From assembly GCA_965113315.1 (NCBI GenBank), contig OZ220364.1: DNA of 64,000 nt; one strand, given 5' to 3'. The notes below the pieces were generated by a model. That model saw only the letters and a program-made list of their open reading frames with translations, did not search any database and was not told the DNA's origin. Shown one piece after another: positions 4,022 through 56,059 of this stretch (its first letter is position 1; each line of letters opens with the position of its first letter). This DNA is from Podarcis vaucheri. Lineage: Eukaryota. Made by a program: the position numbers and the translations under genes.

Positions 4022-4474
4022 TGTCAGGGGATGATTAGCTGCTTGTGCTTAAAATTGTGCCCCTTCAGAGTTTGTGCGGCCCCACAAACCTCTGTGTGTG
4101 ACAGAGCTCCTCAGACATGTCTGCTCTAGTCACTAGTAGTGTCTGACAGTGGCTGCCTGCGGAAGCGCTTCCAGCAAAGAAGTTCCTTAACGGAAACGCG
4201 TCTCCTGGACTCACGACGTGGCAGCTTCCGGCGAAGCATGGGTCTCCCTGCAGTTGCTTCTGACACCTCCCCGCTATTTTCGCTGGATGTGTCTCTCACC
4301 CCTTTCTCTCCCCTGCTGTTTCCTGCCTGGGCTGCTGCGTCTCTCTCAGCATTACTGAGATCCTCCTCCAGAAACCCCTCGCTCCCCCTCCTTGTCCCTG
4401 CTTTGGCTGCTGACTCTCTCCCAGTCTCTGGGAGCCCTACCAACTCCCTTTCCTCTGATGTCAGTTCCCTGACA
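4022..4474 (-). repeat. 3' LTR of Gypsy element
   Basis: Direct repeat of 9129-9581; preceded on the minus strand by purine tract ggaggggaggtgga. Confidence 0.97.
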
Positions 4475-7400
4475 TCCACCTCCCCTCCAGGGCCCCCTTC
4501 TCCCCCGCCCCTACTCTCTCCTCTGGGCGGTGAGGAGCTGAAACCCCGAAAAGAATCCTCTTCATCTTCAGACGTCTCGAACATTTCCCTCCATCGGTCT
4601 TCGTTCCGACTCGCTGAATCCTCCTCCACCTCGGAATCAGAGAACCCCTCCAACTCTTCTTCTTCGTCGGTGGTGGCGAAGTATTCCCTCCGGAACCTCG
4701 CCACTGGCTGGGGTTTACGAGGGAATCTCTGATGAAAAGTTTCAATCAAAACCTCGTCATCTACATCCTCTGCCCTGACCCAGGTGTTTTCCGACTCCGG
4801 CTCCCCTTCCCACATTACCAAATACTCTACTTGCTCTCCCTTCCACCTGGAATCGAGAATCTCCGCTACATGGTAGCTGTGTTCTTTTTCCTCCATAGCT
4901 GGTCCCCTATTGACCCTCCCCTCTCTGTCCCCTTTATACGGTGACAGCAACGACCTGTGGAACACTGGGTGCAACTTCATGTGGTTCGGTAACCGGAGTC
5001 TGAAAGCCACTGGGTTGACCTGTTGCGTGACTTCAAATGGGCCCAGCCTTTTGGGTCTTAACTTCTTACAACCTCCTTTGAATGGTAACCCTTGGGTGGA
5101 CAGCCACACCTGGTCCCCCACCCTAATGCTTTCCCCTTCCCTTCTGGTTTTGTCTGCCTGCCTCTTATATTCCTCCTTCGCCCTGTTTAAATTAAGTTGG
5201 AGCTGGCGATGGATCGCTTCCATTTCTTCAACGAACTGTTCTGCGGCTGGAACGCTCCAGTTCTCCCCTTCCCCCCCTGGGAAGGCTCGGGGATGACACC
5301 CGTGATTAGCCAAAAAGGGGCTCATCCCCGTGGACACGTTCTCTGCATTGTTGTAGGCAAATTCTGCCAACGCCAGCTTCTCCACCCAATCATTCTCTCT
5401 GTCATTCACATAACACCTCAAATATTGCTGGAGGACACCATTAGCTCTTTCCGCCTGCCCGTTGGTTTCTGGATGACGGGCAGTTGAGAAATTCACCTCT
5501 ACATGCAATAAGCTCATGAGCTTCCTCCAGAACCTGGAAGTAAATTGTTTCCCTCGGTCAGAAACCACCCTCAAGGGGGCGCCATGCAGCCTAAACACAT
5601 TTTCCACAAACAATTTAGCGGTTTCTTCCGCTGTGACCGCATGTGAGCAGGCTATAAAGTGGGCCATCTTGGTTAACAGGTCTACCACAACCATGATGGC
5701 TGTTTTCCCTTTGGACCTGGGCAGATCAGTCATGAAATCTATTGCCACTGCCTCCCATGGCCTTTCCAGCGTGGGTAGTGGTTCTAATAAACCTGCCGGT
5801 GCCCGCCTCTCCCCCTTGGCTCGTTGGCATTGGTCACACCCTCTCACATACTCCCGCACATCTTCCCTGACCTTGGGCCACCAGAATTCCCTGGTAACCA
5901 GCCACATGGTTTTGTGTTGCCCAAAATGCCCTGCTGTGGGGCTATCGTGCAGTTGCTTGAGTACCTTTTCCCTCAATTCCCCTTCAGGTATGTATAACGC
6001 TCCCTTGTAGTACAACGCCCCGTTTCTCTCCTCAAAACCCCCGGGTTTGTCTCCCTCCCTCCTGAGACCCCTGAGTTTGTCCTGGGCGTATTCATCCTGC
6101 ACCGTTCCCTCTACCAGTTCCCTTTGCCCCACCAATGCCGCCCCACACACCCAGCGGTCCTCGGGAATGACATGGGTCTCTTCGGGTGCACCCTCTCCCT
6201 CCAAATATTCAGGTTTGCGTGAGAGAGCGTCCGCCCTAACGTTCTCTGGGCCTGGTACGTAACAAATCTCAAAGTTAAATTTGGAGAACTCCTGGGCCCA
6301 TCTCAACTGCCGTTGGTTGAGCACTCGCGCAGTTCTCCAATACTCTAGATTCTTATGGTCCGTGCACACTTGCACCTTCTGTTGTGCACCAATTAGCAGG
6401 TGCCTCCATCTCCGGAAGGCCTCATGAATCGCAAGAAGTTCCCGGTCGTACACCGTGTAGTTCCTCTCAGATTTGTTCAGCTTTCGCGAAAAGAAGGCAC
6501 ACGGTCGCCACTCTGACCCCTCCTTCCCCGGCTGCAGAAGAAGCACCGCCCCTATGGCTCTGTCAGAAGCGTCTGTTTCGACCCTCAGCTTTTTTTGTAA
6601 ATCCACATGTAGAAGTTGTTCATCAGAGGCGAAGGCCCTTTTCAGTTCCTCAAACGCTCGCTCCGCCTCCCCCGTCCAAACAAACTTCTTTTTACTGCTG
6701 AGACAGTCCGTGATGGGCGCCGTCAGGTGGGCGAAGTTTCGGATGAACTTACGATAAAAGTTTCCAAACCCTAGGAACCTCTGCACATCCTTCTTGGTCT
6801 TGGGTGTTTTCCATTCCAGCACCGCTTGAACCTTGCCGGGGTCCATGGCCAACCCCTTGTCTGACAAGCGGTACCCCAGGAATTCCACCTCCTTGGTATG
6901 AAACTGACACTTCTCCAGTTTCACCCACAGCCTGTTGGCTTGCAGCCTGCTCAACACTTCTCTGACGTCTCTCACATGTTGCTCCTCATTCTCCGAATAC
7001 ACCAACACGTCATCTAAGAAGGCCACACAATTCTTGTAGAGCAAAGGCCCCAGTACGTGGTTCATGAAGGCTTGAAAACACGCGGAGCCTGTTTGTAATC
7101 CAAAAGGCATAACGAGGTATTCAAATGCCCCCAAAGGGGTGAACATGGTGGTCTTCCATTCATCCCCTTTCCTTATACGTATCAGGTTGTACGCCCCCCT
7201 TAGGTCCAGCTTTGTAAAAATCTTTCCTTTCCGCACCCTGGTCAAAATATCATCAATCCTGGGCATAGGAAAAGCCGCCGGCTCTGTCACTGCATTTAAC
7301 CGCCTAAAGTCACATACCAGTCTCGGCTTGTCCGTGTTTTTTTTATCCACAAAAAACACTGGGCTACCCCCCGCTGCCTTGGACTCTCTGATGAAGCCTC

Positions 7401-8130
7401 TCTTCAGGTTCTTGTCAATGAACGCTCGCAACTCCTGCATTTCCCTGTCTGACATGGCATACAACTTGCCTACAGGAAGCTGTGCTCCAGGGAGTAAATT
7501 GATCTGGCAATCAAAGGGCCTATGCGGGGGTAGTTGGTCAGCTTCCTTCTCGCTGAACACGTCGCTGAGATCAGCATACTGTGGTGGCACCTTCCCCTTC
7601 CCCATTACTTCAGTCCCTGCCAGGGTGGCTTGGGCCCCTGCTGACCCCTTTTCCCCCCTGCAGTGTTCTAAGCAATGTGCAGAACCGAAGGAAACCACTC
7701 TTTGATGCCAGCCCACCAGCGGATCATGTAAGGCTAGCCAGCTCATTCCCAAAATAATGGGAGCGCCTCCCAAGGTGGCCACATTAAACGCTATCAGTTC
7801 TGTGTGCCTTGCCACCCTCATTATCATTGGGACGGTCTGCAAGCTAACTCCTCCTCCCAACAGTTCCCTGCCATCGATCGTGGTCACCTGCAGGGGGTTG
7901 CTTAAAGGGATAGTCTGTATCTGATGTTCAGCAGCAAACTCCTTGCTCATAAAATTGCAGGAGCTGCCTGAGTCCAACAGCGCCTTTATTTTTAGGGGGT
8001 GTCCATTTTGCAGCTCTAGCGACACTTCAATCACTAGAGCAGGTCGAGGAGCTTCTGGCACGGGCACTTTCACTGCTCTTTGGCCTGGCTGCAGTGCCCT
8101 GACGGTGGCAACCAGGCGTTGGCTTTTACC
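4126..8130 (-). CDS. Gypsy Pol (PR-RT-RNaseH-IN-chromodomain plus C-terminal extension), probably made by -1 frameshift from gag
   Basis: LLDSGS protease, FLDD RT, TDAS RNaseH, HHCC/DDE integrase, GPF module, chromodomain YHVAEILDSR...YLVMWEG...NTW; frame open from the slippery site at 8130. Confidence 0.96.
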   Translation of the reverse strand, partial: GKSQRLVATVRALQPGQRAVKVPVPEAPRPALVIEVSLELQNGHPLKIKALLDSGSSCNFMSKEFAAEHQIQTIPLSNPLQVTTIDGRELLGGGVSLQTVPMIMRVARHTELIAFNVATLGGAPIILGMSWLALHDPLVGWHQRVVSFGSAHCLEHCRGEKGSAGAQATLAGTEVMGKGKVPPQYADLSDVFSEKEADQLPPHRPFDCQINLLPGAQLPVGKLYAMSDREMQELRAFIDKNLKRGFIRESKAAGGSPVFFVDKKNTDKPRLVCDFRRLNAVTEPAAFPMPRIDDILTRVRKGKIFTKLDLRGAYNLIRIRKGDEWKTTMFTPLGAFEYLVMPFGLQTGSACFQAFMNHVLGPLLYKNCVAFLDDVLVYSENEEQHVRDVREVLSRLQANRLWVKLEKCQFHTKEVEFLGYRLSDKGLAMDPGKVQAVLEWKTPKTKKDVQRFLGFGNFYRKFIRNFAHLTAPITDCLSSKKKFVWTGEAERAFEELKRAFASDEQLLHVDLQKKLRVETDASDRAIGAVLLLQPGKEGSEWRPCAFFSRKLNKSERNYTVYDRELLAIHEAFRRWRHLLIGAQQKVQVCTDHKNLEYWRTARVLNQRQLRWAQEFSKFNFEICYVPGPENVRADALSRKPEYLEGEGAPEETHVIPEDRWVCGAALVGQRELVEGTVQDEYAQDKLRGLRREGDKPGGFEERNGALYYKGALYIPEGELREKVLKQLHDSPTAGHFGQHKTMWLVTREFWWPKVREDVREYVRGCDQCQRAKGERRAPAGLLEPLPTLERPWEAVAIDFMTDLPRSKGKTAIMVVVDLLTKMAHFIACSHAVTAEETAKLFVENVFRLHGAPLRVVSDRGKQFTSRFWRKLMSLLHVEVNFSTARHPETNGQAERANGVLQQYLRCYVNDRENDWVEKLALAEFAYNNAENVSTGMSPFLANHGCHPRAFPGGEGENWSVPAAEQFVEEMEAIHRQLQLNLNRAKEEYKRQADKTRREGESIRVGDQVWLSTQGLPFKGGCKKLRPKRLGPFEVTQQVNPVAFRLRLPNHMKLHPVFHRSLLSPYKGDREGRVNRGPAMEEKEHSYHVAEILDSRWKGEQVEYLVMWEGEPESENTWVRAEDVDDEVLIETFHQRFPRKPQPVARFRREYFATTDEEEELEGFSDSEVEEDSASRNEDRWREMFETSEDEEDSFRGFSSSPPRGESRGGGEGGPGGEVDVRELTSEERELVGLPETGRESAAKAGTRRGSEGFLEEDLSNAERDAAAQAGNSRGEKGVRDTSSENSGEVSEATAGRPMLRRKLPRRESRRRVSVKELLCWKRFRRQPLSDTTSD
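8067..8130 (-). promoter_or_regulatory. -1 ribosomal frameshift signal (G_GUA_AAA plus H-type pseudoknot)
   Basis: Heptamer at 8130-8124, 6-nt spacer, stem gcctggttgc/gcagccaggc, second stem gggcact/agtgccc; pol lies in the -1 frame. Confidence 0.75.
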
Positions 8131-9083
8131 TGCTCCGTTTCTCCCTGCTCTCCCCCCTCAACTGCTCCCACCATCCCTTGCCATTCCTTCCTCTGGGGGC
8201 AGACTCTGGCAAAGTGGCCTGGCTGTTGGCAGAGATAGCATTTCCGGGCTCCCTTTCCCTCCTTCTTCGCCCCCTCACTGGGCTTTGAAACTGCGCGCGC
8301 GCGGGCTGTTCCGATTTCCATCGGCTCTGCCGGCGGGAAAGCTGGCTCAGGAATGTCTGGAATGCGTAACTCCTTCCAACGTTCCCCTCTCCCTTCCCGC
8401 CTCTCCAAGGCTCTTGCCTCCTGGCGCGCTCCAATGGTCAGCGCAGATTTGGTCAGCTGATCCATAGACACCGCCCTGGGGCTCCTGGACAGCTCGTCTT
8501 TCACAGCCGAAGAAAGACCTTCTTCAAATAGCATCTGAATGGGTGCTGCCGATAAATCCCACCCCAATCTGTGAATCAGCATGGTAAATTCAGTCCAGTA
8601 CTCACGGACAGATCTGCTTCCCTGCTTGCAAGCCATTAGCTGTCTGCGCACCACCCCTTCCTCAATATCGCTGGAAAACATGATATCCATTGCACGAAAG
8701 AATTTCATAGTGTCCTTTAGGATATCGTTGTGCGTTGCCATCAGGGGTCGAACCCAGTCCCGCGCCCCCTTCTCAAGATGCCCAATTACGAAAGCAACTC
8801 GCGATTCCTCATCAGGGAACTCATCAAACTGCACATTCAGGGCATATTGCATCTCGGTCCTAAAGGCATGGTAATCCTTGGGGTCCCCCCCAAACTTCTG
8901 CACCAATCCTGGTACCTTTCTGGGGAACTGAGTGGTTCTCCCCTTTTTGTCAGCATCCTGAGCCCTTCTCTCCTCGAGCCTCGCCGTCTGCAGCGCAAGT
9001 TGGACCTCCAGAGCTTGATACCTTTCTTCCAAGCTTGGACCAGCTCCAACCCCTGCGTCTCCGGTTCCGACTGGGTTGCTCAT
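8070..9083 (-). CDS. Gypsy Gag (capsid plus CCHC nucleocapsid)
   Basis: First ATG at 9083 (MSNPVG); QGSRSVREY capsid motif; CYLCQQPGHFARVC zinc knuckle. Confidence 0.95.
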   Translation of the reverse strand: MSNPVGTGDAGVGAGPSLEERYQALEVQLALQTARLEERRAQDADKKGRTTQFPRKVPGLVQKFGGDPKDYHAFRTEMQYALNVQFDEFPDEESRVAFVIGHLEKGARDWVRPLMATHNDILKDTMKFFRAMDIMFSSDIEEGVVRRQLMACKQGSRSVREYWTEFTMLIHRLGWDLSAAPIQMLFEEGLSSAVKDELSRSPRAVSMDQLTKSALTIGARQEARALERREGRGERWKELRIPDIPEPAFPPAEPMEIGTARARAVSKPSEGAKKEGKGARKCYLCQQPGHFARVCPQRKEWQGMVGAVEGGEQGETEQVKANAWLPPSGHCSQAKEQ

Positions 9084-9128
9084 GATGCTATCTCCTGCAC
9101 AGGCAGCGTACAAAGACTGTCAGACTGC

Positions 9129-32849: not shown

Positions 32850-33800
32850 ATAATAATTTAATAATAATAATAATTTATTATTTATACCCCGCCCATCTGG
32901 CTGGGTTTCCCCAGCCACTCTGGGCGGCTTCCAAAAGAATATTAAAATACTGTGATACATCAAACATTAAAAGCTTCCCTAAACAGGGCTGCCTTCAGAT
33001 GTCTTCTAAAAGTCTGGTAGTTGTTGTTCTCTTTGACATCTGGTGGGAGGGCGTTCCACAGGGAGGGCGCCACTACCGAGAAGGCCCTCTGCCTGGTTCC
33101 CTGTAACTTGGCTTCTCGCAGTGAGGGAACCGCCAGAAGGCCCTCGGTGCTGGACCTCAGTGTCCGGGTAGAACGATGGAGGTGGAGACGCTCCTTCAGG
33201 TATACTGGACCGAGGCCGTTTAGGGCTTTAAAGGTCAGCACCAACACTTTGAATTGTGCTCGGAAACGTACTGGGAGCCAATGTAGGTCTTTCAAGACCG
33301 GTGTTATATGGTCTCAGTCACCAGTCTGGCTGCTGCATTCTGGATTAGTTGTAGTTTCCGGGTCACCTTCAAAGGTAGCCCCACGTAGAGCGCATTGCAG
33401 TAGTCCAAGCGGAAGATAACCAGAGCATGCACCACTCTGGCGAGGCAGTCCGCGGGCAGATAGGGTCTCAGCCTACGTACCAGATGGAGCTGGTACACAG
33501 CTGCCCTGCACACGGATTTAACCTGTGCCTCCATGGACAGCTGTGAGTCCAAAATGACTCCCAGGCTGCGCACCTGGTCCTTCAGGGGCACAGTTACCCC
33601 ATTCAGGACCAGGGAATCCTCCACACCTACCCGCCTCCTGTCCCCCAGAAACAGTACTTCTGTCTTGTCAGGATTCAGTCTCAATCTGTTTGCCACCATC
33701 CATCCTCCAACCGCCTCCAGACACTCACACAGGACCTTCACCGCCTTCACTGGTTCTGATTTGAAAGAGAGGTAGAGCTGGGTATCATCCGCATACTGAT
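32850..33800 (-). mobile_element. L2 LINE 3' fragment (ORF2 C-terminus, small internal deletion near 33315)
   Basis: HQYADDTQLYLSF, RLDYCNALYVGLP, LQLIQNAAARL, LHWLPVRFRAQFK, RAFSVVAPSLWNALP; simple-repeat tail. Confidence 0.93.
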
Positions 33801-34996
33801 GTAGTAGTAGAATCAATATGAGAAGGGTAATCAGGATCATTCTCATTGTCCAACCACCACTCTCAACATCCATGGGATGATGCACACAGATTGCATGTGT
33901 GTGCAATTTGTAGATGCTGCCACGAAACCATTGAAATGCAGATTTATTGACTGCATGGCAAGCTTATGCATGCCCAAGTTGTATGTGCATATGCTCTCTA
34001 CAGAAGGCAAAAGCAGAGGGTGAAATCCAAATCTGGCACACATGGATTCTACCTGTATATAAACTCTAGGTATGGGGAGGAATTTGATTCAGTTCACATT
34101 TAAATGCAAACCTACCTAATTTGCACTTTCTGAAACAACACACCAACTGAAACATAGCCATCCTTGGAAATTTGTACTTCTCTGAATTTTGCAGCGTACT
34201 TATCCATGCACAGAATTGTATATCTTAAGGTAAAGTGTGCATAAAAATAATACATTCATGAAACTGGCATACAAAATTGCATCATATTAGGGAAAGCAGG
34301 CTTTGTGAAAATGAGTATTAAGAGAAATTTGTACTCAAAAACCAGGGGGTCTTCATTTTTTATCATTATTTAGCAAAATGTATATACTGCCTGACTCTAA
34401 TTAGAACCTCTAAGTGGTTCATGAGTATTTTTTTTTTTGAATCACAAACAGATGTGGAAATGTGGAAAACTGAAAATGAGAAATGTGGAGAACAGGGGAA
34501 TGAGAAATGGAGAGAAAATGAAACGGACAGATTTGCACCCATCACACCAACACACGAAAGGAGGGAGAGTAGGGGATTCATTCTGTCTGCCATCTTGTGC
34601 CTTCCACCCAGTAGTGCTAGCATTTGTGTGAGTTCCATCTCACACATGCCATGTTGTTGCTTCCCAAGTTAATAACATCTTGAGTTATAGTCTTGCAGTC
34701 CATCAAAAGTTTCTCAGTATCTCTCGCCTGAGGAAACTGAGAGATGTTTGTTTCTCCTCTAACATCTATATTTACAGGGCTGGCTTTGAGGGTAGCCAGT
34801 TTGTTCCCAAGACAATTATCTTAAACTGGTAATTGCTTCCTTCTCCTAAACTAGTAATTTTGTCTTGTTTCTCCTCTCAGATTTACACCAATTGGGGAGG
34901 TGTCTTTTCAGCCACACTTCCTTCTTCATGAAGTCATTCATGTGTTGACATCAGTCTTCCCTGCCATCTTTTTTACTAAAATATATCCTAAGGCGT

Positions 34997-45749: not shown

Positions 45750-46900
45750 ACACAGGGGAGCAACTAGTTACATCAAGGCGATCATTCCAGGGGTGCTCAA
45801 CTAGATATTTACTGAGACATGAATAAGCATCATTGCTTTGGAAGTGATACATGACAGGAAGCATTTTCTTCAAAGGGACATTTGACCTATAATGAAGCAT
45901 GAAGCAATTTGATGCAAATACAAATAGGAGTAAGAGTTAGACTGCAATGCTAGCCACACTTACCAGGGGTAAGTCTCAATGAAGAGAGTAAGATTCATTT
46001 CCGAATATAAATGCACAGGATTATGCTCCAAGGTTGAACTATATTACAGAGCCCCTATTTGTAAGAATCAATAGGGCCCAGAGAACATTTTCTCCTTCAG
46101 TCTGTTTTGAATCTCTCATCTAGAAAGAGAGCTGGCTTCATAATTGCTCACTGGTTATGTTAATATCCTATATGGTATTTACAATGAGTGTTCCATTATT
46201 AACATTTTAAAGAGTTTGGAAATGCTGTTCTGACAAATTAAATTTGTGCTGGCATTCAATGATTTTTCTAAAGAATCATTAGATACGTTTCACTGCACAT
46301 TTTTAGAGGACTGGGAAAAATAAAATGAAATTTGCAGGAGAAATTAAGACACAATACAGGCTCCTTTATTAAATCACATGGTACCTGGTTTAGGAACTGA
46401 CAACGCTAATTTGTCTAACATTTCTCTTTCGGCTGCCTAATCATTATAGAAACTTTTCAAAGGCTCTATTAGTAGACAGGAATGTCAAGTTCCTTTTTTT
46501 AATTCCTCTAATTTTCTCTTATGAATTTATATTTACCCAGGGAAGAATTTGTAAAGGTTTTTTAACCACTAATCACATGCTCCAATATTTGTGACATTTG
46601 ACTGGCATAATGCATTACTGAAATGCTCTTACTAATATAGGTGGTTGAAGTAGATCAGAGTGCAAGAAAAGGAGGCCTATGGTCCTCCAGAAGTTGTTAG
46701 ACTCCAACTCCCATCATCCCCAAGATGCATGGTCAATGGGCAGAGATGAAGGGAGAACATCTGGTTCTGCAAGCCTGATTAATAAATGGTACCTTCCCCT
46801 TAGAAGGATAACGGGTATTGCTGTTAGCTTACATTTCAGACACAGATTAAGAACTTGCTCACACAATGGCCTGAGCTACAAGTGTGAGAGCATTCTACTA

Positions 46901-47131
46901 CAGTGGTACCTCTGGTTACGTACTTAATTCGTTCTGGGGGTCCGTTCTTAACCTGAAACTGTTCTTAACCTAAAGCACCACTTTAGCTAATGGGGCCTCC
47001 CGCTGCTGCTGCTGTGCCACCGCAGCGCGATTTCTGTTCTCATCCTGAAGCAAAGTTCTATTTCTGGGTTAGCGGAGTCTGTAACCTGAAGCGTATGTAA
47101 CCTGAAGCGTATGTAACCCGAGGTACCACTG
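46901..47131 (+). mobile_element. Tigger/pogo-like MITE
   Basis: CAGTGGTACCTC...GAGGTACCACTG TIRs; same family as 23596-23834. Confidence 0.9.
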
Positions 47132-47803
47132 AACTGACCATTAATACCAGAATGCCTTCCCATTCCAGTCCCATTAACCTCTAACCATAGATTAACCCTT
47201 GTCTTGGCTCGCCTGTCTCTTTCTGCTTCTCAGTGCTGAAAATTATAGGGTTTGGGTTACCGTAATCATTGTATACGTGACTTTGACTTCGGACTGCAGC
47301 AAAACTATTGGGGATATTTTATTTCAACAATCTGTGGAAGTACCATGCACAATTGGGTCTAAACCTTTTTTTTAAAAAAGGGTGTTTGACTTAGTTCTAG
47401 TCCAAGGAGAGTTGGTGTTAAATCTTGGCATCATCTCTGTGCTTTGCCTCCACAAAAGGTCCAAATATGCAGGAAAGCACTGCAACCAAGGTGATTTTCT
47501 AACCCCATCGAGATAATTGCATTTAGTTTTATGTCTTCACTCTTCTTCTGAGAAAGCACAGACCTTCTGACTCTAGAAATTGCAAATAACAAATTTTAAA
47601 AATGAAAGGGCATTAAAGGACAATTCTCCTTTAAGAGACCACATAAGCCCGTGAAGTTCCAAAGGTAATTGTGAAATGTAGTCCAAAGGAACATTCCTAA
47701 TTACACTTGGCATTTCAGATTAGCTGACTCTTGCTAAACAAATGACATAATTTGTGGCAATGGCTGTAAAACGTTGACTGTAAACAAAAGCGCATTATGC
47801 TTT

Positions 47804-48228
47804 TTTGCGTGTTGAGTCCCACAAAGCCACCCTCACCAAAAAAGACACACTTCACGCATAATTTTTGTTTAAGGTTTTTGGCATAATTTTGGCCACAACT
47901 TTATTCAATACAAAATATGTGAGTGGTTGCTTAGGCATTGGTTATGACTATCTGTCCATGCCCAGGGACAGTGCTGACTTCCGGATTCCAGCGGAAGCCA
48001 GCTTGGGAAACAAGTATTGGGTGAGAAAATATGAAGCTGGGTAACAGTCCCTCACTTCTCACCCTCATGTTCCTGTGGGGCTTACCCGGCCCGAGTCCGA
48101 CTCCGGGGACAAGGACGAAAGGATGGTAAGCCCCTGGATTCCTTTACGGAATTCCCATTCCGCACACCATTTGGAGGGGTAGGCACTTACCCCTCCTTCC
48201 ACCAATTTTAACCAATGCCTAACCGCCA
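47804..48228 (-). repeat. Ngaro repeat B2 (425 bp)
   Basis: No differences seen from 48623-49047; minus-strand AATAAA at 47900-47905. Confidence 0.96.
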
Positions 48229-48406: not shown

Positions 48407-48625
48407 GTGATCCGTTGCAGAAGCCGAGAGGACGCTCTAGTGCTAGGCATCCTACATTTATAAGCTCGGCTCCCTCCTCCAAATTTTGCAACATCCAAAA
48501 ATCCCCAGCAACCCAAATTAACCCCTTACTGGCTTGGATTCCAAAATCTGCCCAGCAACGACAGGGTGGCTTATATTTTCCCAACCGCAACACGTGCTCT
48601 CATTTTTTAAAGGAGAACACGATTT
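48407..48625 (-). repeat. Ngaro repeat A2 (219 bp)
   Basis: No differences seen from 55073-55291. Confidence 0.96.
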
Positions 48626-49047
48626 GCGTGTTGAGTCCCACAAAGCCACCCTCACCAAAAAAGACACACTTCACGCATAATTTTTGTTTAAGGTTTTTGG
48701 CATAATTTTGGCCACAACTTTATTCAATACAAAATATGTGAGTGGTTGCTTAGGCATTGGTTATGACTATCTGTCCATGCCCAGGGACAGTGCTGACTTC
48801 CGGATTCCAGCGGAAGCCAGCTTGGGAAACAAGTATTGGGTGAGAAAATATGAAGCTGGGTAACAGTCCCTCACTTCTCACCCTCATGTTCCTGTGGGGC
48901 TTACCCGGCCCGAGTCCGACTCCGGGGACAAGGACGAAAGGATGGTAAGCCCCTGGATTCCTTTACGGAATTCCCATTCCGCACACCATTTGGAGGGGTA
49001 GGCACTTACCCCTCCTTCCACCAATTTTAACCAATGCCTAACCGCCA
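48623..49047 (-). repeat. Ngaro repeat B1 (425 bp)
   Basis: Direct repeat of 47804-48228 at offset 819. Confidence 0.96.
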
Positions 49048-49076: not shown

Positions 49077-49691
49077 TCACAATCCCAGCCAAGTCCTTAA
49101 CTTAGCCACCACTGCACCCAGCCACGCCTTGTTCCCTAAGGTCGAAAGGTGCACACCATCATCCCTAAAGAGAGATGCATCCTGAAAACGAATCTCCGGA
49201 TGTGCAATCACATCACCTCCCAGCTCAAAAATCTTTTTGGAGACCGCGGCATTAATCCGCTTTCTGGCTCTTTCTGTGGCACTCGGGCAAAGACTGCCCC
49301 TCCAAACCCGTCGTTGTAAAAACTTAGACCAGAATATCTTTGCTGTCGGCACCATTGCTCTCAGCACCTCCAGGTCGCTCAAAATTGTAGCACGTAAAGA
49401 TAAACAGTCCATGGACACCATGTCGTTCTCACCCAGCTGAATCACAATGGCTGTGGGCGGCCGTTCCACACCCAACTGCCTCCTCATCAGTGGCAGGAAC
49501 TCCGGCCATAACATTCCCCTTCTGGTCAGCCAAGAAACTTGTACGTGTGTAGGCAGACCGAGACCTGGTCCCAGTCCAAACTGCCGAGCCTCAACGCCAG
49601 CCCAATGCACGATGCTGTGCCCCACCATCCAGATGCGGACAGCCGCTAAACCTGAGGTAGATAAACAAACATAAGAGATGTTAACGGACAT
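49077..49691 (-). CDS. SGNH/GDSL hydrolase of the Ngaro element
   Basis: Block I WMVGHS, block II RRGM, block III QLGEND, block V DGVH. Confidence 0.88.
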   Translation of the reverse strand: MSVNISYVCLSTSGLAAVRIWMVGHSIVHWAGVEARQFGLGPGLGLPTHVQVSWLTRRGMLWPEFLPLMRRQLGVERPPTAIVIQLGENDMVSMDCLSLRATILSDLEVLRAMVPTAKIFWSKFLQRRVWRGSLCPSATERARKRINAAVSKKIFELGGDVIAHPEIRFQDASLFRDDGVHLSTLGNKAWLGAVVAKLRTWLGL

Positions 49692-50670
49692 AGCCTCTAA
49701 AGGCGTCAGATTTCCAGCGGCCCAAGTTCTTTATTCTATTGGCTGACAGTCCCCAGTGCGCTGCTGTCGTGGCAGCTCCAATCCTAAAAGAATGTGGGGC
49801 GAAATCATGTGCGGAGCCACCACTAGCCTTAATGGCCTTTCGCATCACCATTGTAAACTGACGTCTGGACAGAGGCAAACCGTTCTCATGCCTCAACAGA
49901 GGACCGTCCCCTGGATTTCGGACGGCAAGGTACCTCCTAACATCCTTGACCGGGCAAGGTCCTGCCTCCCCTGTAGCCGGAAGCCTAATAAGGGCTCCCC
50001 TGCCTTTTTGGTCCGTTTTAGAATTCCTAATTGTAAGTCTCAGCTCCGTCAAAGATAGCTGTACGTCCTGGAGCAACAAACCCCTAGAACGGCCGTCCCT
50101 GTGAGCTTCCAGCACAAGCTCACCAACCCTTAGGGCTCCAAAAAAGGCAATGGAAAAAGCCGCAGAAAAAAGGCGAGCCTCATACCCTGACCAGCAAAGC
50201 TTCCTCAACTCCTTGCGCATCTTACTTAATAGGTCAAAGGAGATCGGGTGCCTAGCGGCTGGTTGAGAAGGACAAATCCTACCCCACCCTTCAAGGGCCT
50301 TGCGCACCACAAACTTCGCGCAAGGATCCTTGTCGAATAGAGATTTACAGAAAAAGGCAATGGCGGCTGCCTGGATCCGTATGGTCTTAGGCGCACGTCC
50401 CAATTGGAACAGGTGCGCCAGATACCTTAGCACCTGTGATGAGGAAGGAGAAGCCCTCATCTCTTTCCCTACCGACTGATATGTAAAGGCCAGAAAATCA
50501 GTCCACGCTTTGGTGTACGACCTGAGGGTAGAAGAGGAAACAGAAGCAGCTACTCCCTGAAAAACTAATTCCTGCCAAGGTTCCAGAGATGATCCGGGAA
50601 ATATTCCGGACGTAACCGAGCCTCTGGAACCAGGAGTCTGAACCGCTCCATCTGAAAACGGGACAGAGCA
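49681..50670 (-). CDS. Tyrosine recombinase (frame open to 50670; first ATG only at 50460)
   Basis: ALRVGEL, SKTDQ, HSFRIG, GRW...Y; upstream in-frame SVSSSTLRSYTKAWTDF looks like the N-terminal binding domain. Confidence 0.95.
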   Translation of the reverse strand, partial: CSVPFSDGAVQTPGSRGSVTSGIFPGSSLEPWQELVFQGVAASVSSSTLRSYTKAWTDFLAFTYQSVGKEMRASPSSSQVLRYLAHLFQLGRAPKTIRIQAAAIAFFCKSLFDKDPCAKFVVRKALEGWGRICPSQPAARHPISFDLLSKMRKELRKLCWSGYEARLFSAAFSIAFFGALRVGELVLEAHRDGRSRGLLLQDVQLSLTELRLTIRNSKTDQKGRGALIRLPATGEAGPCPVKDVRRYLAVRNPGDGPLLRHENGLPLSRRQFTMVMRKAIKASGGSAHDFAPHSFRIGAATTAAHWGLSANRIKNLGRWKSDAFRGYVR

Positions 50671-52295
50671 TCAGCAATTTCGTTAGACACTCCAGGAATG
50701 AAACGTGCAGAAAACACTATATTGTGGCGTAAGCAATGCAATACAAAAGCGCGCAAAAGGGCCGACACCCTAGGAGAGCGGGACGACAGCTTGGCCAGCA
50801 CGTTCACCACCGCCAGGTTATCGGTCCAGAAGCAAACGCGTCGGTCCCTGAACTCATCGACCCACAAGTGTACTGCCACTGCAATAGGAAAGAACTCAAG
50901 AAAAGTTAGATCACGCGTAACGTCTCTCCCTTGCCAATCCAGTGGCCAACGCATGGCGCACCATCTGCCCTTCCAATATAGACCGAAGCCTTGGGAACCT
51001 GCGGCATCCGATTGCACCTGAAAGTCATTATGCAAGTTCAACGTGTCTTGCCATAACGACACTCCATTGAATTCCTCCAAGAATTCAAGCCAAATGCTGA
51101 GATCAGCCCGTACTTCTCTAGATAAACGGACCCGATGATGTGGGGCCTTCAAACCCACGGTAAGCCGGGCCAGACGGGAACAAAAAGGGCGTCCAGGGGC
51201 CACCACCCTGCACGCGAAGTTCAGGTGACCCAAAAGCGATTGGATCTGCCTAAGGGACACCTTCTCCAAAGGGATCACTTCCTCTATGACCGTCTTCAAA
51301 GCAACCAGCTTATCCATTGGCAAGCTGGATGTTTGGGACACCGTATCCAAGAGGATACCCAGGTAAGTAAGTTGGGTTGCCGGACCCTCTGTCTTGTCCG
51401 CTGCCAGCGGAACCCCGAGTTCCTGCGTAAGGTCAGCAAAGGCCTGGAGCAACAACGAACAATTGCCAGATTCAGCATCTGAGGCCAATAAAAAATCATC
51501 CAAATAATGAGTGACCCCGCCCAGCCCGGTTTTTTGCTTGATGGCCCACTCCAAAAAGGTACTGAATGATTCAAAAGCAGCACATGCTATCGAGCAACCC
51601 ATAGGCATGGCCTTGTCAAAATAATATTTCTCCTCGAACCGAAAACCTAGGAGCCAAAAATCCTCCGGGTGAATTGGCAACAATCTAAAAGCCGATTCGA
51701 TATCGCATTTTGCCAATAAAGCAGCCCGTCCAAATTTTCGAATCATCTTAATTGCATAATCAAGGGAGGCATACTTTACTGAGCAAAGTTCCTGAGGAAT
51801 CACGTCATTAACCGAGGAACCCCTAGGATGCGATAGATTATGAATTAAACGAAATTCACCAGGGGCCTTCTTTGGCACAATACCCAAAGGAGAGATGTGC
51901 AAATTATGAAAAGGCGGGGCACAGAATGGGCCCGCCATCCGATGCATGGACACCTCCTTTGCAATCTTTTTCCGGGCGATTTCAGGTAATTCACGGACTG
52001 ACTTTTGATTAGGGGGATTCCGTGCCACGGGAGGCATGGCTACCGGAATCCGAAAACCCACAGAAAAACCATCACTTAAGTAATTTGCGGCGTCCCTATT
52101 GGGGTAAGATTGCAGCCATCGTTTAAGAGCCGGCAATCGTACCGGGGTGTGGGCCAATGATGTCAACACACTATTTTGCTGCTCCTGAGGTTGACGGGAG
52201 GGGGGGGGCTGACTTGGGAGGTTGCTGAGAACCTCCTCTGCCTCCACGAAAGGGCCGCCTACCACTAAAGCAAGAGGAAGCAGGATGCGTTCCAT
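50565..52295 (-). CDS. Reverse transcriptase / RNase H of the Ngaro element
   Basis: KCDIESAFR, MPMG, YLDDF, SDAAG, LEFFPI, TDN, ADALSR. Confidence 0.96.
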   Translation of the reverse strand: MERILLPLALVVGGPFVEAEEVLSNLPSQPPPSRQPQEQQNSVLTSLAHTPVRLPALKRWLQSYPNRDAANYLSDGFSVGFRIPVAMPPVARNPPNQKSVRELPEIARKKIAKEVSMHRMAGPFCAPPFHNLHISPLGIVPKKAPGEFRLIHNLSHPRGSSVNDVIPQELCSVKYASLDYAIKMIRKFGRAALLAKCDIESAFRLLPIHPEDFWLLGFRFEEKYYFDKAMPMGCSIACAAFESFSTFLEWAIKQKTGLGGVTHYLDDFLLASDAESGNCSLLLQAFADLTQELGVPLAADKTEGPATQLTYLGILLDTVSQTSSLPMDKLVALKTVIEEVIPLEKVSLRQIQSLLGHLNFACRVVAPGRPFCSRLARLTVGLKAPHHRVRLSREVRADLSIWLEFLEEFNGVSLWQDTLNLHNDFQVQSDAAGSQGFGLYWKGRWCAMRWPLDWQGRDVTRDLTFLEFFPIAVAVHLWVDEFRDRRVCFWTDNLAVVNVLAKLSSRSPRVSALLRAFVLHCLRHNIVFSARFIPGVSNEIADALSRFQMERFRLLVPEARLRPEYFPDHLWNLGRN

Positions 52296-53697
52296 TACAT
52301 TTATCGCAATTATGTGAAAATCTACAGGCTGGACGCTGGCAAGAACCCTTATTAAAATCCCAGCATAACAAACGACGGCCAGATCTAAAAGCCGAAAACT
52401 TCGGCTTTTGTTGTTCCGGCACTTTCTTATCTATTAGTGGAGCTACATGAGTAGTCCACACATCTAGATCCTTTCGATCCCAGCGGGCTGAAGGGATCTT
52501 GGCAGCACGGCGTCTGAAATTCTCATCATATTTGATCGCCGCCTTCTCTCCGGCCTTGGAAAATGCGGAGCGCACAATGGATAGATATACTAACAGATGG
52601 AGAGACCTCCGTGGATAGGCTGCCACTACTACACCAGCGAAAACCTGAAAACAGTCGAGCCAATGCTCGAAAGACCTGACCACTGCAGAGGCCCCTGTAC
52701 GCTTTTTGGGTGAAAAACTTTCTTTTTCCTGATCCTCAGAAGGTGGGAGCAATTTGAACATATCTACATAGCGGCCATTTAAAATTCTGGACCGCATTTT
52801 TGACGACAAATGCGATCCCGGTATGATGTCTCTAGCAGAGTTGGTTGATACTTTAACGTCGGGAACCAACACACCATCTTTACAATCTAAGACCGCACCA
52901 TATTGTGCCCTATGAGTGTTGGATCTTCGATCCCAAGCCCACCTTGGAAGCCCGGAGACCGATTCACCAAAACCCCAGTAAAGCTGCATATTAGTACCCT
53001 CATCATCGGAGCTAGATGAAGACGTACCGGAATGAGAGGAAGAAGTGTCGTCCCTCTTCCTCTTGGCGCGCTTCCGAGATGACTTCTTTGGGCGACGTTT
53101 TCCTCCCAAAGACTTCCTGGCAGGTACTGGGAGACTGTCTTCAACAGACGACTCAGATTCGAGCTCCAGTTGAGATGGAACTGAAACAGACTGCACAGAG
53201 ACAGCATGTGAGGTGCCAGAACCCGAGGCCACCGCAGCCGGATGGCGAGCTGACCCACGCCTGCGAGTCGACCCTGCCACAGGGGCACTTATTCCTGAGG
53301 CCCTCCTAGAGGAGCGACCAGACCTCCGAAGCTGACCCCGGTCTGCAGGTAAGACAGGAGACTGGGATAACTGGGGGTTCGTGAGCAAACCGCCAGATGA
53401 TGACCCTTCTGCCCCATCTTCACTAGAAGAGGGTGAAGCCGGAGACGATGCCAACGCAGCAGGAAGCTGGCTTCCAGACGTGGACGGCTGGGTGGAGCAA
53501 CGCTGCAGGAAACCATCCATTTCAGCTGCAAAGCGAGAAAGTGCTGCAGGGTCGCCAGCCATGCTCGCCACCAAAGACTGTACCCGCCCTACTGGTTGGC
53601 CTGCAGAAGGTGAGCGGAGCGCCTGGGATGGGCCTCTAATCGGTCGTTTAGCAGCGGTGGCAGGGCTGGAACGATTGACGGCCTTCTTCGGACCCAT
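52171..53697 (-). CDS. Gag-like ORF1 of the Ngaro element
   Basis: ATG at 53697 (MGPKK); Ser/Arg-rich N-half with basic NLS-like KRRPKKSSRKRAKRKR; YDENFRR core; CWDFNKGSC...C..H.C..C...H....C zinc finger. Confidence 0.92.
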   Translation of the reverse strand: MGPKKAVNRSSPATAAKRPIRGPSQALRSPSAGQPVGRVQSLVASMAGDPAALSRFAAEMDGFLQRCSTQPSTSGSQLPAALASSPASPSSSEDGAEGSSSGGLLTNPQLSQSPVLPADRGQLRRSGRSSRRASGISAPVAGSTRRRGSARHPAAVASGSGTSHAVSVQSVSVPSQLELESESSVEDSLPVPARKSLGGKRRPKKSSRKRAKRKRDDTSSSHSGTSSSSSDDEGTNMQLYWGFGESVSGLPRWAWDRRSNTHRAQYGAVLDCKDGVLVPDVKVSTNSARDIIPGSHLSSKMRSRILNGRYVDMFKLLPPSEDQEKESFSPKKRTGASAVVRSFEHWLDCFQVFAGVVVAAYPRRSLHLLVYLSIVRSAFSKAGEKAAIKYDENFRRRAAKIPSARWDRKDLDVWTTHVAPLIDKKVPEQQKPKFSAFRSGRRLLCWDFNKGSCQRPACRFSHNCDKCNGTHPASSCFSGRRPFRGGRGGSQQPPKSAPPLPSTSGAAK

Positions 53698-53817
53698 ACC
53701 TGCTAGCCGGAGAAAGTCAAAACCAATTAAATTTCGCAAATCACTACGACCAATACTAATTTATCAAGCTTCCCAAGCTAAACCTAAGGTCCTATCTCAC
53801 TGTACCAACGAAGTCTC

Positions 53818-53888
53818 TTTTATTTATTTATTTATTTATTTATTTTATTATAATTTATTTATTTATTTATTTATTTATTTTATTTATT
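53818..53888 (+). repeat. (TTTA)n microsatellite inside the Ngaro 5' region
   Basis: Visible tandem repeat. Confidence 0.9.
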
Positions 53889-55072
53889 AAATAATTTTTA
53901 AATTGTGTATTTCAATTTTTCAAAATATTTTCTTATTTATTTGCTTGAAATAAATTTTACAATAAACAATACAGCCTATTCCCTGGTCAAATCAACAATA
54001 ACTTGCAGCAAGCAACAGTCTAGTTAACTAGTGGGTGCAGTAGCCGATTCAGGCCAGCAGGGGTCAGACCAGGCCAATCCACTCAGAAGAGTGGATGCAA
54101 TACAAGGCCAACCACCAGAGGGAGCTCTGTCGTCGAGGCGCAATGACAGGCCTCGGCCACTAGAGGGCCAGTCGCAACGCAGGCAAGCGGCAATCAGCCT
54201 GCAAGCCACCCACGCTGCAGAATGGCGGGCGCAATCGCGCAGCTAGGTTCCTTTTTTTTTCCCTGTCGGCAAGGCCCCAGCCGCACAGGGAAATTCCGGG
54301 CACCCCAGCCGGCCCGCGCACGCCGCCGCCGGGCTGCTCAAGCTGCCGCTAGGCAGGCAGGCCGCGCAGCTACCAACGCGGGCCTGCCGGAGCCCAGGCG
54401 GCAGACGCCACACGACGGCTCCGCGCCTCACGGACTAGGACCCCGACGCCACAAAAGGAAGGACCGGAGGCCTTCGCGAGGGGAGACCGCACCCGCCCGG
54501 GGGAACAGGTAAGCGCTGCCGCGCTTAGCGTAGAAGGATCCCCCCCACGCAGGCGCTCCGCGGCCCCGAGCGCCGATAATACTAAGAGGGGGGGGTGGGA
54601 AGGCCGACGCGGCCCGGGCAAGGGGCCTAGGCCTCACCCGATACGGCAACAGGGCCTCCGGTCCGAGCGCGCGTCGCAGGCTCCGGACCCAGGCCCGTTT
54701 CCGAGAGGGGGGGGGAGGATGGGTCTCAACGGCCGCGGCAAGCGGGCCGAAGAAAGCGCAGCCGCTCCGGCTCCCCGAGATGGGAGCAGCCTTGGGCCGG
54801 GGAAGCTAGGCCTCCCCGGGCTGGGGGGGGGTCCCCACCCTCAGCCAAGCTTTTTTATATATATTAAATATATATATATATTCAGATTAAAACAATAGGG
54901 TATCTAAAAACGTTTAAAGGAATCAATGGAAATAAGAGGGAAGGATGGAGGGAAAAGGGGGAATTGAGGGTAAGATAGAGGAGGGTAAAGGGAGGAGGCT
55001 TAAAGGAGGGAAAATTGAGCTTAAATCTCAGTAATAGCTGAAATACAACCGACTCCCGACTTGAACTGCTCC

Positions 55073-55291
55073 GTGATCCGTTGCAGAAGCCGAGAGGACG
55101 CTCTAGTGCTAGGCATCCTACATTTATAAGCTCGGCTCCCTCCTCCAAATTTTGCAACATCCAAAAATCCCCAGCAACCCAAATTAACCCCTTACTGGCT
55201 TGGATTCCAAAATCTGCCCAGCAACGACAGGGTGGCTTATATTTTCCCAACCGCAACACGTGCTCTCATTTTTTAAAGGAGAACACGATTT
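55073..55291 (-). repeat. Ngaro repeat A1 with candidate TATA box (55128-55123)
   Basis: Direct repeat of 48407-48625; minus strand cttataaatg about 50 nt from the inner edge. Confidence 0.93.
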
Positions 55292-55713
55292 ATCATTCTG
55301 ACCCAATCAAGAAAAGAGAAAGGGGAAGATTTGATGTGACTCAGCATCAAAGTTATGTGGTATATCAAACAAATTATGCTTGGTACTTCCACAGATTGTT
55401 GTTGACATAAAATAGACCCAATAGTTTTGCTGCAGTCCAAAGTCAAAGTCATGTATACAATGATTACAGTAAGGACAAAAGTTCATCTAGTAGAGCATCC
55501 CACTTCCCACTGGAGCTAGCCAGCTGACTTCAGGAAGTCTGAAAGCAATAGTCCTTTTCTGGAAGGCTCCAGATGTGGTCTGAATGCTCAGGTCCCTGAG
55601 TATTCTCGAAATATTTGTTATCTGTATTTGTATGATAAATGTGCTCAGTTTGACAATATCTGAAGCTAGAGAAATGCTACCGAGTGACAGAGAGGAGGTG
55701 GAACTCCTCAATA

Positions 55714-55938
55714 CAGTGGTACCTCGGGTTAAGAACTTAATTCATGCTGGAGGTCCATTCTTAACCTGAAACCGTTCCGAAGCACCACTTTAGCTAATGG
55801 GGCCTCCCGCTGCTGCCACGTGGTTTCTGTTCTCCTCCTGAAGCAAAGTTCTTAACCCGAGGTACTATTTCTGGGTTAGCAGAGTCTGTAACTTGAAGTG
55901 TCTGTAACCTGAAGTGTCTGTAACCCGAGGTACCACTG
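55714..55938 (+). mobile_element. Tigger/pogo-like MITE
   Basis: TA|CAGTGGTACCTCGGGTTA...TAACCCGAGGTACCACTG|TA. Confidence 0.92.
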
Positions 55939-56059
55939 TACCTACTTTGCCTCTGTCTTCACCCAAAAGGAAAGCAATACCCAACCTGGTGATAACAGAA
56001 TAAATGGTGCATGGAATCAGCTGCAACCCAAGATAGTAAAATAGGTGGAAAGGGAACAC

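Follow-up and report, generated by a model that had tools for sequence, protein, structure and literature searches.

The Xenopus element DIRS-53_XT, a Ngaro retrotransposon with an SGNH hydrolase open reading frame (ORF), has split direct repeats in the arrangement A1...B1-A2-B2 and carries gag, reverse transcriptase/RNase H (RT/RH), tyrosine recombinase (YR) and SGNH in that order (PMC9210276, in part). The same arrangement and order are found in the element studied here, which occupies positions 55291-47804 on the minus strand of a 64,000-nucleotide (nt) stretch of Podarcis vaucheri DNA (contig OZ220364.1 of assembly GCA_965113315.1), called the window below. In the passages covered of the DIRS-53_XT paper the strings 'splic' and 'intron' are absent and the hydrolase has no proven function, whereas in the present element YR and SGNH look like exons fused behind a Gag leader. 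According to PMC5580714 and PMC5408684, splicing is established in other retrotransposons. In plant Ty1/Copia elements host splicing likewise sets the protein stoichiometry, but it yields a Gag-only RNA, while here Gag would come from the unspliced RNA and one donor with at least two acceptors would generate enzyme fusions (PMC5580714, in part). ORF3/env messages of long terminal repeat (LTR) elements, including the bdelloid GDSL ORF3, are alike in that a 3' accessory ORF, sometimes SGNH, is typically expressed from a spliced message; those elements have a DDE integrase, whereas here the integration enzyme itself would be spliced, to a leader of 223 Gag amino acids (aa) (PMC5408684, in part). 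The SGNH esterases of non-LTR ORF1 proteins, such as ZfL2-1, are also appended to an N-terminal Gag-like/ORF1 module and have been proposed to act on membranes, but that fusion is encoded contiguously and the one described here would be made by splicing (PMC3905857, in part).

No such splicing programme for Ngaro or DIRS elements appears in the passages covered of PMC7192593, PMC9341512, PMC9210276, PMC6681497, PMC8547959, PMC3783388, PMC3266345, PMC4495291, PMC12477816, PMC9940879 and PMC6431247, nor do those passages explain how the overlapping, often ATG-less downstream ORFs in DIRS-order elements are translated. We found no published report of shared-donor splicing in Ngaro/DIRS, nor one among work on the Ngaro SGNH hydrolase, in a search outside of which lay the main reviews (that of Goodwin and Poulter from 2004 and that of Poulter and Butler from 2015), Repbase and supplements, of which the last two may note such splices.

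The sequence-only reading of this locus had proposed that a single donor in gag is joined to three acceptors, one each for RT, YR and SGNH. Every coordinate, phase and join length in it was reproduced by recomputation. The Gag ATG is at 53697 and the donor CCG/GTACGT (the slash marks the junction) has its last exon base at 53028, giving 670 nt, that is 223 codons plus one nucleotide (phase 1). In-silico joins to 52384, 50651 and 49651 are stop-free and encode 829, 546 and 414 aa, respectively; 30 codons separate 52384 from the first RT-frame ATG (52295), and an AG/GTATG with first exon base 53699 precedes the Gag start. The sequence alone is not decisive, because the region holds many similar YAG and GT sites: a scan of 55300-47800 returned 18 YAG sites with at least 12 pyrimidines in 16 and 14 donor-like GT sites, with the RT site outside those 18. 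Conservation separates the sites. Splicing from donor 53028 to the YR and SGNH acceptors very probably occurs. Apparent introns were reportedly noted by Goodwin and Poulter in 2004 in a Rhizopus DIRS element.

Conservation was assessed in 70 loci of the same genome that cover most or all of the element. Four intact frames were present in 39 of them, which form 27 lineages at 95% identity (21 near and 6 far), 55-100% identical to the window copy; the lineages are related, so that counts are not independent events. The remaining 31 loci, with a broken or unlocated frame, were excluded from the single-codon, frameshift-site and site-ranking counts, and L011 was left out of the synonymous-divergence analysis. 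All 140 YAG sites and 269 GT sites were ranked blind by conservation. The predicted signals, all on the minus strand, are as follows.

53028-53697, minus strand: shared leader exon, 223 codons plus 1 nt, rich in Ser, Ala, Arg, Gly and Pro, with a basic tract at about 53100-53053 (from the sequence).
53022-53030, minus strand: 5' splice site CCG/GTACGT, phase 1; G/GT[AG] and phase 1 in 27 of 27 lineages, Gly224 GGT single-codon.
52384-52400, minus strand: proposed RT acceptor, AG 52386-52385, weak and at most a minor site; kept in 28 of 30 near copies, and in 19 of 21 near and 0 of 6 far lineages.
50652-50690, minus strand: YR 3' splice signal, with branch-like CTAAC (50686) and CTGAT (50674), a pyrimidine tract and AG 50653-50652 over the RNase H ADALSRFQ codons (conservation).
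49652-49680, minus strand: T-rich non-coding spacer with the SGNH acceptor AG 49653-49652 at its end (conservation).
53700-53725, minus strand: acceptor-like site before the Gag ATG, TAGCAG/GTATG, AG 53701-53700; kept in 30 of 30 near copies.

The donor ranks first among the 269 GT sites, level with 50962, a site held in place by Trp-Cys codons. All 27 lineages share a single codon at just two of the 109 conserved degenerate Gag columns: Gly224 GGT at the donor and Phe483 TTT. In lineage L112 a Thr has become Glu in the protein and the donor reads as a perfect CAG/GTGAGT. YAG is kept in 27 of 27 lineages at only 4 of the 140 sites, and the two richest in pyrimidines are 50651 (YR) and 49651 (SGNH). 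In 42 further loci the YR acceptor YAG was present in all 36 where the position could be located, and the SGNH acceptor YAG lay exactly 20 nt before a Trp codon in all 33 located. The 12 codons before the YR acceptor have the lowest synonymous divergence of 406 RT-frame windows (0.056 against a median of 0.354), and the Gln CAG codon at the acceptor is single-codon. None of the 27 lineages has a YR-frame ATG above this acceptor, and the first Met is scattered from codon 16 to codon 308. Before the SGNH acceptor the spacer varies from 29 to 67 nt through non-triplet indels, while the AG-to-Trp distance stays at 20 nt. A branch-like motif precedes YR in 25 of 27 lineages and SGNH in 14 of 27. 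The predicted introns from 53028 to 50651 and to 49651 have GT...AG ends, a pyrimidine tract, a branch-like motif and kept position and phase, as U2-type introns do. The check on site position and phase in the 27 lineages came out in favour of the donor and the YR and SGNH acceptors and against the RT acceptor.

Database gene models carry the same junctions. Of 23 long SGNH homologues, 17 consist of a Gag leader and SGNH joined at the predicted position (Podarcis and Zootoca; P0002 has 414 aa). In 4 others, from Zootoca, exons of host genes are joined at that position, and the remaining 2 are YR fragments. Among 118 YR hits (from the best 120 of 385 matches), 33 extend at least 25 aa past the acceptor: 4 are fusions to RT, 3 are read-throughs of the acceptor and 26 have what we read as foreign leaders, the last from Podarcis, Zootoca, Anolis, geckos, Hemicordylus, a snake, a caecilian, several frogs including Xenopus, and the sea urchin Lytechinus. 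P0262 is a 544-aa Podarcis YR model with an SS/DG junction. After the junction the unspliced partners read G-T or G-E, as a phase-1 G/GTAC or G/GTGA donor requires. Among the best 150 of 1425 SGNH records, 61 have a long N-terminus; eight of these match a leader in the set, and three leaders, 98-99.5% identical, are common to a YR model and an SGNH record (P0033/P0324, P0105/P0391 and P0090/P0456; on the YR side Zootoca, Ascaphus and Eleutherodactylus). The X1 and X2 isoforms of LOC142310334 diverge at the donor, and several leader-join models are isoforms. According to a description of the NCBI pipeline (2014 release), multi-isoform genes must be fully supported, either by a long alignment or by single-sample RNA-seq (PMC5737279, in part). 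Selection on the sites together with these models supports predicted donor-to-YR and donor-to-SGNH splicing well.

Several observations weigh on the other side. The donor pair alone is one of 8 invariant adjacent pairs among 217 (13 near lineages). The YR acceptor falls on conserved codons of RNase H (FQM), and protein constraint therefore accounts for part of its invariance. A YR-frame Met occurs at codon 16 in 4 of the 27 lineages, and an ATG stands above the SGNH acceptor in 7 of 27, the window copy included. The external support consists throughout of predicted gene models, and no contiguous spliced ORF was seen among the 17 YR-side Logan/ENA ORF calls viewed or in P0310-P0312, which are unspliced. 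Two-motif patterns for processed genomic copies of the YR, SGNH and RT junctions gave 0, 0 and 0 hits against 55 for the unspliced control; because the patterns cover near families only, this is not evidence against splicing. Such points could be taken to mean that no functional splicing exists, that the sites are by-products of coding constraint and the models artefacts of gene prediction, and that the ORFs use internal ATGs, reinitiation or frameshifts. Coding constraint does yield invariant YAGs (49783, 51561 and 49614), and database joins between Gag and RT are scattered, so that the predictor does bridge frames. We consider this explanation very unlikely, since the SGNH acceptor is fixed in position although its spacer is non-coding and rich in indels, the conservation of the donor falls on a synonymous base, different loci and species share one position for the joins of the leader to YR and to SGNH, unlike those between Gag and RT, and the NCBI pipeline is described as having the above support rule for multi-isoform genes.

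Two alternative acceptors were rejected: YAG 49783 as an SGNH entry, as it lies in the YR HSFR codons, and an AG at -68 in the far clade, which has poor tracts, is GAG in two loci and is made by Arg-Gly codons. In the Gag C-terminus of the far clade (L061-L076), a donor-like G/GTAAGA (K-x-G-K) is seen in 8 of 15 aligned loci and T/GTAAGT (C-K-Y) in 14 of 15, ahead of the zinc finger and within it; G/GTAAGA is apparently the one used in model P0152. The YAG at 52184 on the minus strand follows a C-rich tract and is invariant in 14 near lineages; a join to it from 53028 would give a leader-only peptide of about 227 aa.

The acceptor-like site that had been noted ahead of the Gag ATG is kept in 20 of 20 near lineages with a located start and in only 1 of 6 far ones, and no conserved donor for 53699 was found in the 5' untranslated region in 16 aligned copies. 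In the near clades an upstream intron ending at 53699 is probable. The 1.4-kb 5' region (53760-55070, minus strand) has nearly no ATGs and a GC-rich middle; it contains conserved blocks (CTTACCT, CCGCCATT and CCCCCTRGTGG) and, at the 3' end, a simple repeat that varies.

The third predicted product, a leader-RT fusion of 829 aa made by splicing from the same donor to 52384 as the main source of RT, did not find support. The join is in frame, and the YAG persists at the near-clade frequencies listed above despite an amino-acid change before the Arg codon. In one Zootoca family, database models at two loci (P0146/P0290) join the leader to RT, further down inside RT. Against this, site 52384 ranks only 30th of the 140 YAGs, its level of 19 in 21 near lineages is reached by 26 of the 140, its tract averages 9.0 pyrimidines in 16, it is absent from the far lineages and it has been lost in the intact loci L014 and L015. 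The acceptor of the 53028-52384 intron is therefore not conserved above background, as a U2-type site would be. In L078, L069 and L106 the RT frame is not open at the corresponding position, Gag synonymous sites at 52383-52297 show no significant constraint (p=0.11), and none of the best 120 of 383 RT matches joins at 52384. Taken together, a three-acceptor scheme with this RT product is unlikely. The invariant YAG 52184 was rejected as an RT entry, being in phase 0 in the RT frame.

If RT is not reached by splicing, how is it translated? The features that bear on this question are the following.

52246-52254, minus strand: candidate +1 ribosomal frameshift site CCC_TTT_CGT, with Gag Phe483 at 52251-52249 (conservation).
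52217-52236, minus strand: hairpin of 7 bp, lying 12 nt below the candidate site and with weak support; 91.8% of cells paired.
52293-52295, minus strand: first RT-frame ATG, in Gag Asn-Gly codons, a rival RT start (from the sequence).

The motif UCC_UUU_CGU, or UUU_CGN, directs +1 frameshifting in influenza A PA-X and in plant amalgaviruses. The candidate read from the element's sequence resembles these sites in having UUU in the P site followed by a CGN codon and a second ORF in the +1 frame. To our knowledge frameshifting of the UUU_CGN type is not known from YR retrotransposons, although no literature search was aimed at frameshifting. In the Gag/RT overlap NCC_TTT_C (52254-52248) is kept in 39 of 39 intact copies, followed by CGN in 38, and the form TCC_TTT_CGN occurs in 4 of the 39, all of one family. 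Phe483 is TTT in 27 of 27 lineages, while at the four remaining conserved Phe positions of Gag both TTT and TTC are found. RT lies in the +1 frame and is open below TTT_CGN, in agreement with the definition of UUU_CGN sites. The RT frame opens just 6, 14 and 15 codons above the shift site in L078, L069 and L106; upstream of the site, L069 and L078 lack both an ATG and a phase-1 YAG. Loci L030 and L110, in which the TTT_CG site is altered, have broken frames and are among those excluded. These findings favour a +1 frameshift at 52254-52248, giving a Gag-RT protein of 1043 aa, as the probable route to RT. In L016 and L108 a homopolymer indel below the candidate site fuses Gag and RT into 1043-1044 aa, equal to the length predicted for the frameshift product.

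The frameshift has its own difficulties. A Pro-Phe constraint in the RT frame could equally give TTT_C; PF occurs in only 12 of the 46 RT N-termini taken from other sources (5.5 on average after shuffling, a comparison inflated by related sequences), and support outside lacertids is thin. The hairpin below the site has changes on both sides in 2 of 7 pairs and an RNAalifold covariation term of -0.03. Synonymous constraint in the Gag overlap starts already near ATG 52295 in the near clade (0.254 vs 0.433, p=2e-4). This last point fits a scheme in which YR and SGNH are spliced and RT starts at its own ATG 52295, through a separately spliced or initiated RNA or by reinitiation; in 12 of 14 near lineages the ATG is flanked by G at both -3 and +4, two RefSeq models (P0142 and P0289) begin at it, and 30-70 residues precede the TP motif in 39 of the best 120 of 383 RT matches. 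We regard this scheme as decidedly unlikely, as an ATG above the PF site is missing in 7 of the 27 intact lineages, five of which have none before the TP motif, and +1-frame ATGs arise passively from Gag NAT-G codon pairs. A by-eye search for a slippery heptamer at the RT/YR boundary found none.

The element itself is an intact Ngaro-type YR retrotransposon with the following layout.

55073-55291, minus strand: A1, a split direct repeat of 219 nt that holds a TATA-like TATAAA at 55128; 100% identity with A2.
52171-53697, minus strand: Gag ORF of 508 aa that has a Cys/His finger at its C-terminus (zf-CCCH_10 match below cut-off, E 0.0014).
50565-52247, minus strand: frame of RT/RNase H, +1 relative to Gag and open from 52430, of which 560 codons lie below the candidate shift site (RVT_1 E 3.8e-13; YLDD and RNase H motifs).
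49681-50651, minus strand: predicted exon of the tyrosine recombinase, in which 322 codons follow the split codon and the first Met of its own is at 64 (matches below cut-off to Phage_integrase, E 2.3e-05, and Phage_int_SAM_4, E 0.0018; R-K-H-R-W-Y motifs).
49077-49651, minus strand: predicted exon of the SGNH/GDSL hydrolase, in which 190 codons follow the split codon (Lipase_GDSL_2 match below cut-off, E 0.00068; GHS, GEND and DGVH motifs).
48623-49047, minus strand: B1 repeat, 425 nt, with AATAAA at 48724 (repeat comparison).
48407-48625, minus strand: A2 repeat, overlapping B1 by AAA, the circle junction (repeat comparison).
47804-48228, minus strand: B2 repeat, 425 nt, end of the element (repeat comparison).

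Both repeat pairs, A1/A2 and B1/B2, are identical, in the split arrangement typical of Ngaro, and enclose four frames: Gag, RT/RH (+1), YR (0) and SGNH (+1). A Pfam scan of the four ORFs and their catalytic motifs identified gag, RT/RH and YR and neither a protease nor a DDE integrase; no Dam match (DNA adenine methyltransferase) after RH reached E<=0.01 in that scan, again as in Ngaro. The RT frame terminates about 30 codons past ADALSR. As in the vertebrate Ngaro subgroup, an SGNH ORF lies downstream of YR. The best named protein matches are from Podarcis (92% over SGNH), which points to a lacertid lizard as the probable host.

Host repeats are alike on the two flanks of the element, at 46899-47330 and 55372-55941 (direct D3, D4 and D8; inverted I1 and I2). 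Elsewhere in the window there is an RT fragment (33304-33963) and, at 4126-9119 on the minus strand, a Ty3/Gypsy retrotransposon that carries a chromodomain and whose gag (349 aa) and pol (1343 aa) frames are open. In the same genome (G000), 36 of 81 scored YR matches lie on one 41-Mb contig, C41 (e.g. L031-L033, L061 and L062), several of them degenerate; the contig is possibly a sex-limited or heterochromatic chromosome. The Zootoca vivipara models P0017, P0018, P0019 and P0022 are zinc-finger/SR-like host genes that end in a Ngaro SGNH exon, and it is possible that the hydrolase has been exonised in host genes of that species.

On the whole we lean slightly toward a scheme in which leader-YR and leader-SGNH are made by splicing and RT by +1 frameshifting. 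One promoter in A1 would serve four proteins. Unspliced RNA would give Gag (508 aa) and, through the shift at CCC_UUU_CGU, a minor Gag-RT/RH fusion (1043 aa). The phase-1 donor after the Gag basic tract would be joined either to the YR acceptor (leader-YR, 546 aa) or to the SGNH acceptor (leader-SGNH, 414 aa), and both enzymes would therefore gain a start codon and a basic, low-complexity N-terminus. The leader might target them to the particle or the nucleus. It is low-complexity with a basic tract in lacertids, and several non-lacertid leaders have no such tract beside the junction. More tentatively, and at somewhat less than an even chance, the scheme may represent a programme resembling that of complex retroviruses, found in Ngaro from lizards to frogs and sea urchins: a PA-X-like frameshift for Gag-RT and one donor serving YR and SGNH, with an acceptor hidden in an RNase H motif and a targeting leader derived from Gag.

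Such a programme would explain how genes without a start codon are expressed in this class of mobile DNA. If RT indeed comes solely from unspliced RNA, the absence of spliced copies in the genome would be explained as well. The exact junctions and the frameshift site are testable. The junctions are already present, unrecognised, in RefSeq models; many 'uncharacterized' or 'xerD homolog' RefSeq genes would be retrotransposon splice products, and the SGNH acceptor may have been captured by host genes. The real YR and SGNH proteins would be fused to a long leader, disordered and basic, a point of importance to anyone who expresses or studies these recombinases.

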